A stretch of DNA of 64,000 nucleotides from an uncultured Clostridia bacterium (GTDB taxonomy: Bacteria > Bacillota > Clostridia > TANB77 > CAG-508): positions 4,057 to 68,056 of the forward strand of contig CANQNU010000002.1 in assembly GCA_947625295.1 (NCBI GenBank), written 5' to 3'. Below the pieces are notes generated by a model. That model was given only the letters and a program-made list of their open reading frames with translations, searched no databases and was not told where the DNA came from. The translations under genes and the position numbers were made by a program. Positions 30,928 through 32,845 of the stretch are shown piece after piece; position 1 is the first letter of the stretch; each line of letters opens with the position of its first letter.

Positions 30928-31320
30928 TTACTGAATTATATTAATTATTATTTTCCAAATAGTAAATGCCCCAAATATTACACTTGCTGTTATTAAATAT
31001 GGCACTAATGTCTCTTTTACATCAGCCTTATCTTCTAAACTTGATGTCATATATTTCATTCCCAATATTATTCCTACAATTACTAACATAATCATAGATA
31101 TTGCTAATAAAGCATTATAAATGTAATTTGACGCTTTTTTTAGCTGTATTTGATCATCTACGGTACGTGATTCTCCTTTACTTACAAAATCATCTGCACT
31201 TTTAAATACATTATCTAGAGATGCAGCATATATCCTTGTTGGAAACAAGAATATTATTAATGATACTGTAAGTATAAGAAATATAACGCTTTTATAAAAA
31301 AAAGTATTTGTGTTTTTCAT
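30928..31320 (-). CDS. VirB2/TrbC-like pilin paralog 1
   Basis: 130 aa. Signal peptide, then two hydrophobic helices flanking MKYMTSSLEDKADVKETLVPYLI (family loop). Confidence 0.65.
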   Translation of the reverse strand: MKNTNTFFYKSVIFLILTVSLIIFLFPTRIYAASLDNVFKSADDFVSKGESRTVDDQIQLKKASNYIYNALLAISMIMLVIVGIILGMKYMTSSLEDKADVKETLVPYLITASVIFGAFTIWKIIINIIQ

Positions 31321-31323
31321 TTT

Positions 31324-31821
31324 TTAAAATCCTCCTACAATATCAATGATAAAACCTAATATATTAGTTATTGCAAAAACCATCAATGCTCCCAATAAAT
31401 ATGGTAGCATTGTTTTTTTATACTCTGCTCTTTCTTCAGCACTACCTAATATATATTTAATTCCCATAATAATTAATGCAACCACTGATATAATGCTACC
31501 TAAAACTCTTATTGGACCTATTATATTGTTTCCAATATCTTTTACTTTATCAGTTCCTGTAGTATCATTGCTTGAGTCTGGTTTCCAATCATTTGGATTA
31601 AAAGTGGTTCCTGAACCTCCTGTACTCGTATTATCTCCTGTACCCGTAGCACTTTCTGTATCCGTATTAATCGATATGCTATTCCATAATCCTGTTGTTC
31701 TTGATGCATAAGTATTAGGTTTCATAAATATTATCAATAGTACAAATAATATTATAAAAAAGCAAACTTTTTGTGCTCTATTTATCATCTTTTTCACCAG
31801 CCTTGTTTTTATAATTAACAT
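31324..31821 (-). CDS. VirB2/TrbC-like pilin paralog 2 (long Thr/Gly/Asn-rich mature N-terminus)
   Basis: 165 aa. C-terminal GIKYILGSAEERAEYKKTMLPYLLGA between two TM helices. Confidence 0.7.
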   Translation of the reverse strand: MLIIKTRLVKKMINRAQKVCFFIILFVLLIIFMKPNTYASRTTGLWNSISINTDTESATGTGDNTSTGGSGTTFNPNDWKPDSSNDTTGTDKVKDIGNNIIGPIRVLGSIISVVALIIMGIKYILGSAEERAEYKKTMLPYLLGALMVFAITNILGFIIDIVGGF

Positions 31822-32028
31822 ATACGTAAGTATTTTTAACTATTTATATGCTAACATATTTATTGTAATTTGTAAATAAATTTTGAAAAATAAATATTTT
31901 TGTAATATTAACCATTTTTTATAACAATCCATGGATAGAACTGAAGTGGTTTACCCTTAAAGTTAATGAAAATAAAAAAAGATTCCTTAATAGAATCTTT
32001 TTTATTGTTTTATGTATCTTTTTAACTA

Positions 32029-32403
32029 TTATTGTCCAAAAGAACCTGTAAAACTAAATATTGCTCCAGCTATAGTTGACGCAGCAAATACTAATGCAGC
32101 ACCAATTATATATGGCAATAAAGTTTTCTTATATTCAGCTTTTTCTTCGGCACTACCCATCATATATTTAATACCTAATACAACTAAAACAATTACAGAA
32201 GCAATTGAACCTATTGTACTAACAATAGAAATAATTTGATTTCCCATATTTTTGATGCTAGTTGTGTTGTAATTTGAATCTCCTTTAAAACCTGATGGAT
32301 CTATACCTGAAGTAGCAGGATCTGTTTGTGCTGCAAAAACAGTTACAGATAAAATAAATACTAATATAGCCAATAAAGTTACTATTTTTACTACTTTTTT
32401 CAT
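32029..32403 (-). CDS. VirB2/TrbC-like pilin paralog 3
   Basis: 124 aa. Signal peptide (VFA-AQ) and GIKYMMGSAEEKAEYKKTLLPYIIGA between two TM helices. Confidence 0.7.
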   Translation of the reverse strand: MKKVVKIVTLLAILVFILSVTVFAAQTDPATSGIDPSGFKGDSNYNTTSIKNMGNQIISIVSTIGSIASVIVLVVLGIKYMMGSAEEKAEYKKTLLPYIIGAALVFAASTIAGAIFSFTGSFGQ

Positions 32404-32482
32404 AGTATCCCCTTCCTTTCTTTAAATCTTTATTTATTATATATTCAGGTTCATGTATATGTCCCTTTATATTATATCACTT

Positions 32483-32845
32483 TTAAAATTCTATTGCAAG
32501 ATTATATATAACTCCTGCAATATTTGAAGCTGCAAATATCAAAATAGCTCCTATAAGAAATGGCATTAATGTCTTTTTATATTCCGCTTTCTCTTCTAAA
32601 CTTCCTAACATATACTTTATACCCAAAATAACAATTACAATAACTGATAATATAGAACCTATTGTACTAATAAGGCTTATTGCCTTATTTCCAACTGCTA
32701 CTACTTCCTTTGTTTTCTCTTCCGATAAATTTCCTTCTAAATCTGTTATTGAAAAAGCATTAACAACATTTATAAAAAACATTATTATTATAACAAAAAA
32801 TAACAAAATCTTTAAAATTTTTTCTTTTTTCATAGGTTCCTCCAT
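32483..32845 (-). CDS. VirB2/TrbC-like pilin paralog 4
   Basis: 120 aa. GIKYMLGSLEEKAEYKKTLMPFLIGA between two TM helices. Confidence 0.7.
   Translation of the reverse strand: MEEPMKKEKILKILLFFVIIIMFFINVVNAFSITDLEGNLSEEKTKEVVAVGNKAISLISTIGSILSVIVIVILGIKYMLGSLEEKAEYKKTLMPFLIGAILIFAASNIAGVIYNLAIEF

Follow-up and report, generated by a model that had tools for sequence, protein, structure and literature searches.

A conserved array of four VirB2-like pilin types at a chromosomal type IV secretion-like locus of uncultured gut Clostridia

Introduction

Type IV secretion systems (T4SSs) of monoderm bacteria have been described as lacking the pilin VirB2. A row of four VirB2-like genes lies in a stretch of 64,000 nucleotides (nt) from an uncultured Clostridia bacterium (GTDB lineage Bacteria; Bacillota; Clostridia; TANB77; CAG-508), which corresponds to positions 4,057 to 68,056 of the forward strand of contig CANQNU010000002.1 in assembly GCA_947625295.1 and which we call the window. 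At 30928-32845, on the reverse strand, it carries four co-oriented open reading frames (ORFs) of 120, 124, 165 and 130 codons, named here P-A to P-D from the first to be transcribed to the last. An original prediction, made from the sequence alone, had taken them for VirB2/TrbC-like pilin paralogs with a conserved core and divergent mature N-termini, and had suggested that the array serves antigenic or receptor diversification, or builds a heteropolymeric fibre.

The prediction also held that a single pilin gene is the rule in T4SS loci, which is true in general, and tandem VirB2 arrays are already known in Patescibacteria, Bartonella and Anaplasma (PMC12102498). Guglielmini et al. described monoderms as being without VirB2 homologues (PMC4027160), and a 2025 review states that Gram-positive T4SSs have neither VirB2 nor VirB5 except in Patescibacteria, considered unique among monoderms in their pilus potential (PMC12857230). 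The patescibacterial T4SS combines VirB2 arrays of 2-11 genes with TrsD, PrgI, VirB4 and VirB6, has no relaxase and lies close to dnaA (PMC12102498); in Southlakia the pilin array is essential (PMC10633639). Our searches of the literature on VirB2-like proteins in Firmicutes or Clostridia returned only Patescibacteria papers and general reviews. Based on the comparisons presented here, we propose as the more probable reading that the four genes are a fixed set of anciently diverged, specialised subunits of a domesticated and vertically inherited chromosomal T4SS that lacks the two relaxase families tested.

Results

Family membership of the four genes

Profile comparisons support the placement of P-A to P-D in the VirB2/TrbC (T4SS_pilin) family, in agreement with the original prediction. 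P-A, P-B and P-C score 40.7, 44.3 and 33.5 bits against PF04956 (TrbC/VirB2; Pfam gathering cut-off 27.9 bits) and 36.2, 43.3 and 37.7 bits against PF18895 (T4SS_pilin; cut-off 26.6 bits), and the array heads a run of T4SS-like genes. Against the NCBIfam model NF045849, the same three proteins reach 29-30 bits, below its curated cut-off of 40. Profiles built without window sequences and with one pilin type left out (the types are described below) recover all four paralogs at E values of 1e-20 to 8e-41 (Z=1e6), P-D being found at E 9.7e-21 by the profile of types I, III and IV, and retrieve 333 of 334 family members. The likeness of the four paralogs is therefore not a matter of chance.

In alignment, the paralogs are 31-49% identical to P-A, mostly over the C-terminal ~75 residues, and 17 columns are invariant. 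They share a loop of the form G(I/M)KY..(G/S)S.E(E/D)(K/R)A(E/D).K(K/E)T..P(Y/F); the common motif first proposed for this loop fits P-A, P-B and P-C, whereas P-D deviates from it (GMKYMTSSLEDKADVKETLVPYLITA). The segments that follow the signal peptide (N-segments) are wholly different among the paralogs and could not be aligned, as had been expected. The N-segment of P-C, which is rich in S, T, G, N and D and predicted to be exposed, had been read as a 70-residue insert rich in Thr, Gly, Asn and Asp, but measures ~54 residues from the cleavage site to helix 1, against 18-27 in the other three.

All four proteins have the same predicted architecture: a basic or charged n-region, an h-region with a mean hydropathy of 3.3-3.7, a signal-peptidase site of the small-x-Ala type in each case (Table 1), a hydrophilic stretch of 18-54 residues and two hydrophobic helices. 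A small-x-small cleavage site was also present in 308 of 324 homologues in a heuristic signal-peptide analysis. AlphaFold2 modelled P-B, from a 136-sequence alignment, with a predicted local distance difference test (pLDDT) score of 83.5, as a signal helix (2-20), a low-confidence region (21-47) and a hairpin of H48-82 and H85-123. The P-D model comprises H35-48, H56-92 and H95-129, with the extra short helix over LDNVFKSADDFV ahead of the hairpin, and the hairpins of both models have a pLDDT >90. Internal ATG codons, M5 in P-A and M12 in P-C, have better-placed Shine-Dalgarno sequences than the starts of the longest ORFs and give the usual MKK-type N-terminus of a signal peptide. The true starts are thus likely to be M5 at 32833 for P-A, with GGAGG 5 nt upstream, and M12 at 31788 for P-C. 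None of the four genes contains an in-frame CGG.

Could these proteins instead be small membrane proteins without a T4SS role, such as holin-like, bacteriocin-immunity or generic two-helix proteins, with Pfam matches that reflect hydrophobic composition? A two-helix hairpin is a simple fold, fold searches returned unspecific hairpins such as ATP-synthase c subunits, and the best Pfam match of P-D by E value is VMA21, below the cut-off of that family. However, three of the pilins pass two independent curated pilin models, conservation covers the hydrophilic loop and not only the hydrophobic helices, and the linkage of the pilins to VirB4, PrgI and VirB6 is strict in ~80 loci. A scan of the PHROGs families yielded no holin or other phage family, its sole match being one family of unknown function (E 0.0065). 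Assignment to an unrelated family such as the holins, which would have overturned the original prediction, thus finds no support. We therefore regard this explanation as very improbable. The fold searches themselves are uninformative because a bare helical hairpin matches many things.

Pilin types across the order

Pilin arrays were found in 40 of 41 relatives, distributed over five families of the order and including every family of it that was sampled. A class-wide sample of 300 genomes contained arrays in 11/11 genomes of the same order, and elsewhere in the Clostridia only two genomes had such genes, in single copy. The loci include 79 from species-representative genomes, titled uncultured Clostridia or Bacillota metagenome-assembled genomes and mostly from the human, chicken, rabbit, mouse and sheep gut. 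Among 90 loci, the array has four genes in 52, three in 27, five in seven and six in two, such that 88 of the 90 have 3-6 genes. The family is a large one, with 3453 clusters when sequences are grouped at 90% identity and 8006 at 50% (E<=0.001).

A tree of 339 homologues resolves into four clades with FastTree support of 0.66-0.96, each of which holds one member from the window. Type I (97 leaves) contains P-C and occurs in 87 of the 88 arrays of at least three genes, type II (90 leaves) contains P-D and occurs in all 88, type III (54 leaves) contains P-A and occurs in 54, and type IV (93 leaves) contains P-B and occurs in 86. The type III clade is the sister of type IV. Types I, II and IV are near-universal, and type III is a younger sister of IV. 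Type IV shows the strongest conservation and usually closes the array. Best matches between genomes mostly lie at the same array position, and the commonest order, I-II-III-IV, is present in 35 loci and in all eight nearest relatives that were checked.

Each type has a recognisable signature of its own, which lies partly within the variable segment. Type I carries the motif np..ykp (FNPNDWKP in P-C), type II the motif Ddi..gAd.Fi..G and type III the N-terminal motif FS.xDLxG (FsvxDLtG). Paralogs of one genome never cluster together in the tree, and we therefore find no gene conversion or concerted evolution. Taken together, the sequence comparisons indicate that the four copies are old orthologous types, kept in ~90 related genomes, and not a recent variable repertoire.

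Evolution of the N-segments

Within a type and across species, the three parts of the pilins have evolved at different rates. Pairwise identity is 0.14-0.28 in the N-segment, 0.21-0.36 in the signal peptide and 0.49-0.63 in the core. The corresponding ratios of nonsynonymous to synonymous substitution rates (dN/dS; Nei-Gojobori, aligned columns only, pairs with at least 80% core identity) are 0.44-0.73, about 0.6 and 0.12-0.17, the last value being biased downwards by the choice of pairs through core identity. N-segments are 12 to 293 residues long and rich in S, G, D, T and N. The pattern points to relaxed constraint on N-segments that are probably exposed and largely disordered; positive selection is not demonstrable.

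The rapid change of these segments is what would be expected if the array supplied interchangeable major pilins, only one or a few of them being expressed at any time, as a means of antigenic or receptor variation. The N-segments are not alignable between paralogs and are the fastest-evolving part between species, the arrangement of the window array in two terminator-bounded pairs (see below) would permit unequal expression, and the VirB2 paralog families of Bartonella and Anaplasma have been read in this way, at least as they are cited in PMC12102498. Against it, the types are old and orthologous over ~90 genomes, with three of them in at least 86 of 88 arrays; paralogs within a genome have not been homogenised; type-specific motifs are conserved even inside the N-segment; dN/dS is below 1; no invertible or repeat-based switching element was seen; and the fusion of modules in relatives, described below, rules out alternative use there. 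We consider antigenic or receptor variation improbable. Of the two ideas in the original prediction, a heteropolymeric or specialised-subunit array agrees with old types that carry their own motifs, while antigenic diversification does not agree with the lack of concerted evolution and with dN/dS <1.

The type II proteins of several relatives (among them L060 822-2132, L054 686-1786, L069 4413-5504, L080 3145-5399) have N-terminal extensions of 200-300 residues. These lie between the signal peptide and a conserved SLDDxxxDADxF motif and matched no Pfam domain; they might be uncharacterised surface or adhesion domains.

Fused pilin chains and a pilin-like module in VirB6

Some relatives have single polypeptides that combine two to five pilin modules. 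The longest chain, P0121, has five hairpin modules in 450 residues behind a single signal peptide (L095 801-2153 (+); also L096 and L097) and occurs on six contigs from at least three samples. Its locus reads pilin, poly-pilin, 132-residue protein, pilin, PrgI-like, TraC-like/TrsD and VirB4. Further fusions have three modules (P0123) and two (L089 1056-1679). A hairpin begins and ends on the same face of the membrane, which makes such fusions topologically possible, and, as is usually argued for gene fusions, their existence suggests that different modules are neighbours in one structure. The fused chains favour co-assembly of the pilins.

A related module is built into the machinery itself. 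Residues 169-247 of the VirB6-like protein (window 25948-26184; VGIRMLLTTIASDKAKYKQMLTDWLVGICLLF) form a pilin-core-like hairpin with the loop GIR...DKAKYKQML.DW..G....F, which matches the pilin core both by profile (E 2.5e-8) and by hhalign (87%, E 3.8e-6), and the module is also present in 68 VirB6-like ORFs of relatives. It is plausible that this hairpin serves as a docking or nucleation site for the pilins.

The same observations can be accommodated by pilin-like proteins that are short-range channel or stalk parts in the membrane and wall, without an extended pilus. In Agrobacterium, 'uncoupling' mutants reportedly show that VirB2 acts in substrate transfer independently of the pilus. A hairpin embedded in the VirB6-like protein fits a channel or stalk, and the multi-module chains suit a ring or stalk of fixed stoichiometry no less than they suit a long helical polymer. 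Protein family scans recognised no VirB5-like tip protein at the array locus, and the Gram-positive T4SSs studied so far are without a pilus (PMC4027160, PMC12857230). However, some arrays form a separate terminator-ended unit ahead of the machinery, a layout common for subunits made in excess, and N-segments of such unequal length are easier to house on the surface of a fibre than inside a channel. A channel or stalk is possible, although we judge it clearly less likely than a set of specialised fibre subunits.

The secretion locus and its inheritance

The array lies 2 kb upstream of virB4 and is followed by the genes for a PrgI/VirB3-like protein, a TrsD-like protein, VirB4, a VirB6-like protein, a 311-residue protein, a 1201-residue hydrolase and a 470-residue protein (Table 1). 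PrgI and TrsD were assigned from sub-threshold matches together with conserved position; the TrsD-like homologue in relative L095 carries PF26593 (TraC-like). Upstream of a tRNA-Ser pair are DUF4446, parB, parA, rsmG, mnmG, mnmE, jag, yidC and rnpA. The dnaA gene starts at 44363, 11.5 kb from the array, and the GC-skew minimum is near 44 kb.

Related loci share the order RsmG-ParA-ParB-DUF4446-tRNA-Ser-tRNA-Ser-array-PrgI-TrsD-VirB4-VirB6. Where enough flanking sequence was available (58 loci), tRNA-Ser lies upstream in 49, ParB in 43 and DUF4446 in 42, and VirB4 is 78-92% identical to that of the window among the loci listed. This conserved synteny identifies the locus as vertically inherited core chromosome and not a mobile element.

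We also considered a conjugative element, either an integrative and conjugative element (ICE) of the MPF-FATA/FA kind or a plasmid. This was rejected, as the locus lacks relaxase, coupling and integration genes, its synteny is fixed and it has no plasmid homologue. Protein family scans found no relaxase, coupling protein or integrase gene at the array locus, and tblastn of P-B against 72,556 plasmids gave no homologue. The relaxase family PF03432 and Rep_trans PF02486, the only MOB families searched, have 0 matches in this genome, which is 91% complete; among 25 relatives, PF03432 occurs in eight (1/16 of the high-quality genomes) and PF02486 in one.

Table 1 Features of the array and its surroundings in the window (coordinates count from the first nucleotide of the window)
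Feature	Position	Strand	Description
P-A	32483-32845	-	120 residues; type III; VirB2/T4SS_pilin paralog; predicted signal-peptidase I site VNA↓F
P-B	32029-32403	-	124 residues; type IV; predicted cleavage site VFA↓A
P-C	31324-31821	-	165 residues; type I; predicted cleavage site TYA↓S
P-D	30928-31320	-	130 residues; divergent paralog, type II; predicted cleavage site IYA↓A
Terminator-like hairpin and T-run after P-B	31975-32003	-	-10 kcal/mol, z -3.44
Terminator-like hairpin and T-run after P-D	30905-30929	-	-8.8 kcal/mol, z -3.38
Duplicated intergenic block, copy 1	31875-31960	-	~85 nt; between P-B and P-C; TTAAGGGTAAACC...
Duplicated intergenic block, copy 2	30555-30638	-	~85 nt; upstream of the PrgI-like gene; aligned with copy 1
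Two tRNA-Ser genes (gct, tga)	32982-33216	-	border the array upstream
PrgI/VirB3-like membrane protein	30076-30477	-	PF12666 E 0.003, below cut-off; 48-75% identical homologue at the same position in relatives
TrsD-like protein	28947-30086	-	379 residues; weak match to NF045975 (VirB4_plasma) positions 46-406; corresponds to the N-terminal portion of a VirB4 split in two
VirB4-type ATPase (TrsE-like C-terminal part)	26963-28921	-	PF19044 3.7e-15; NF045971 CD1110 family 5e-60
VirB6-like polytopic membrane protein	24208-26688	-	826 residues; contains a pilin-like hairpin module
Membrane-anchored cell-wall hydrolase	19574-23179	-	1201 residues; M23, lysozyme and NlpC/P60 modules; putative VirB1 role
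Fifth pilin-like gene	62431-62763	-	110 residues; PF18895 26.5 bits against a cut-off of 26.6; 26.8 bits in a six-frame search

A fifth pilin-like gene belongs to a second T4SS-like locus, where its neighbours are a VirD4-like gene (62800-63999) on one side and, on the other, a weak TrbL/VirB6-like gene (61542-62438). It was examined as a relative of the array and rejected, with an E value of 0.14 against the array profile.

In a sample of 401 Bacillota genomes, PF18895 exceeds its cut-off in 29, most often with one to three copies (e.g. G584, G712, G664, G563). The usual arrangement there is one small gene and a PF18895 match inside an ORF of 490-830 residues 4-5 kb away. Pilin-like genes are therefore not absent from Bacillota, and what is special to the order studied here is the multi-gene array fixed in the core genome. 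Pilin-like T4SS proteins seem to be more widespread in Gram-positives than the reviews state.

Organisation of the array in the window

The four genes had been thought to be followed each by a hairpin of its own, but stable hairpins with T-runs occur only after P-B and P-D. The array in the window therefore consists of two terminator-bounded pairs and not of four separate units. A consensus terminator scan missed the real hairpins through its G-C rule, the stem after P-B having too few G-C pairs. The 79-nt spacer between P-A and P-B is unstructured, folding no better than its shuffles. The stop codon of P-C lies 3 nt upstream of P-D, so the two genes may be translationally coupled. Promoter-like matches occur at the level expected by chance in AT-rich DNA (27 found, 27.3 expected).

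With the order III-IV-I-II, the window is the sole such case among 89 arrays. It also carries an intergenic block in two copies (TTAAGGRTAAACC...; Table 1) whose motif was found in this window only among the 90 loci; blastn against the spacers of the eight nearest loci showed no similarity. The permuted order and the duplicated block fit a local duplication and deletion, or a transposition by which the I-II pair came to lie behind type IV. The long spacer after P-D holds no pilin remnants, as blastx gave nothing below E 0.02. This spacer of 450 nt, between P-D and the PrgI-like gene, includes a mini-ORF of 11 codons (30741-30776, reverse strand; MKDNNSLTLSI) with a strong AAAGGAG ribosome-binding site, which may encode a leader peptide or have arisen by chance.

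Discussion

The pilin genes described here are linked to a secretion machine, belong to four types of considerable age and fixity, and differ most in N-segments under relaxed constraint. As to how they would work, we infer a sequence of steps, from cleavage and co-assembly to a fibre and its substrate, largely by analogy with known systems. Each pilin would be exported through Sec, and signal peptidase I would cleave it at the predicted small-x-Ala site. The mature protein of 90-126 residues would then have a variable, exposed N-segment ahead of a membrane hairpin whose two helices are connected by a short charged loop (GSxEEKAEYKKT). If they behave as VirB2 does elsewhere, the pilins would be pulled out of the membrane by the split VirB4 ATPase (TrsD and VirB4) and would stack on the VirB6-like platform, which bears a pilin-like hairpin of its own. 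The product would be one heteromeric tube or fibre that crosses the wall where the three-module hydrolase has opened it, with the N-segments on the outside.

Several observations pull the other way and keep our confidence in a set of specialised T4SS subunits limited. On the side of family membership, P-D scores only 21.8 bits against PF18895, below the cut-off of 26.6; Foldseek comparisons of the P-B and P-D models with the PDB gave generic helical hairpins only, none at E<=0.001; and a profile search of solved structures reached the R388 pilin TrwL (8s6h) at a non-significant E of 0.51, where a designed coiled coil outscored it through composition. The fused modules are not cleanly assignable to types I-IV, and the contrast in dN/dS between N-segment and core is affected by the downward bias mentioned above. 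As for a non-conjugative machine, only two relaxase families were tested in a genome that is 91% complete, and the VirD4-like gene, 30 kb from the array in a second partial T4SS-like locus, leaves DNA transfer possible.

The closest parallel in gene content and position is the T4SS of Patescibacteria, for example in Ca. Southlakia epibionticum ML1 (SEML1_0006-0019) and Ca. Nanosynbacter lyticus TM7x (PMC10633639, PMC12102498, PMC12857230). Both have tandem divergent VirB2/T4SS_pilin genes next to virB4, along with PrgI/VirB3, TrsD, VirB6 and peptidase or lysozyme hydrolases, and both form a non-mobile locus near dnaA/oriC of a monoderm, small-genome host with no relaxase detected (here among the two families tested). 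However, the present host belongs to the Bacillota (Clostridia) and has a peptidoglycan wall, and is not a member of the candidate phyla radiation. The patescibacterial arrays are reported to comprise 2-11 copies that vary greatly (mean identity 25%), whereas here four old orthologous types stand in a preferred order.

Other systems share individual features. Diderm VirB2/TrbC/TraA pilins (Agrobacterium T-pilus, R388 TrwL PDB 8s6h, RP4 TrbC) resemble the proteins of the window in Pfam membership for three of the four, in a long signal peptide, in two hydrophobic helices with a short charged loop, and in a gene that heads the operon before virB3/virB4. Those systems differ in having one major pilin, an outer-membrane core complex (VirB7, VirB9, VirB10) and a VirB5 tip; none of these was found here. 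MPF-FATA systems such as pGO1/pSK41 (TrsC, TrsD, TrsE) and the CD1110-family elements of C. difficile share the split VirB4, to which the NF045971 match points, a PrgI-like VirB3, a large VirB6-like protein and a membrane-anchored multi-domain wall hydrolase. They are, however, mobile elements that carry a relaxase, a coupling protein and in many cases an integrase, and are described as being without VirB2, whereas the present locus occupies a fixed chromosomal site with four pilin genes first and no relaxase of the two families tested.

The 'Mbov_0395 family pilin-like conjugal transfer protein' of the Mycoplasma ICE (NF045849) is likewise a small two-helix pilin-like protein of a monoderm T4SS, but it belongs to a mobile ICE, and P-A, P-B and P-C, falling below the cut-off of that model, are not members. 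The virB2 families of Bartonella, Anaplasma and Rickettsia, as far as the accounts cited in PMC12102498 and PMC2653234 go, also place several divergent VirB2 copies side by side. By those accounts, the bacteria are diderm intracellular pathogens that translocate effectors and whose paralogs are read as antigenic variants, whereas the types described here are old and orthologous, with purifying selection in the core.

The presence of a pilin array with TrsD, VirB4 and VirB6 beside oriC in gut Clostridia contradicts the statements of reviews on the host range among monoderms. The locus is inherited like a housekeeping locus and widens the known host range of the pilin-array machine. It also supplies a second and much larger sequence set, with the 50% identity clusters noted above, for studying the roles of the separate pilin types, and the fixed four-type structure together with the natural multi-pilin chains offers handles for modelling a heteromeric T4SS fibre. 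A bolder proposal, which we regard as rather unlikely in its entirety, is that a whole order of uncultured, small-genome gut Clostridia possesses a relaxase-less core T4SS organelle near the origin, in which a heteromeric VirB2-type fibre of three or four specialised subunits, nucleated on a VirB6 platform with a pilin-like hairpin of its own, would mediate contact-dependent uptake or exchange with other cells, as the Bacillota counterpart and possibly the evolutionary source of the essential patescibacterial system. The finding raises the testable idea that small-genome Clostridia may also depend on direct contact with other cells.

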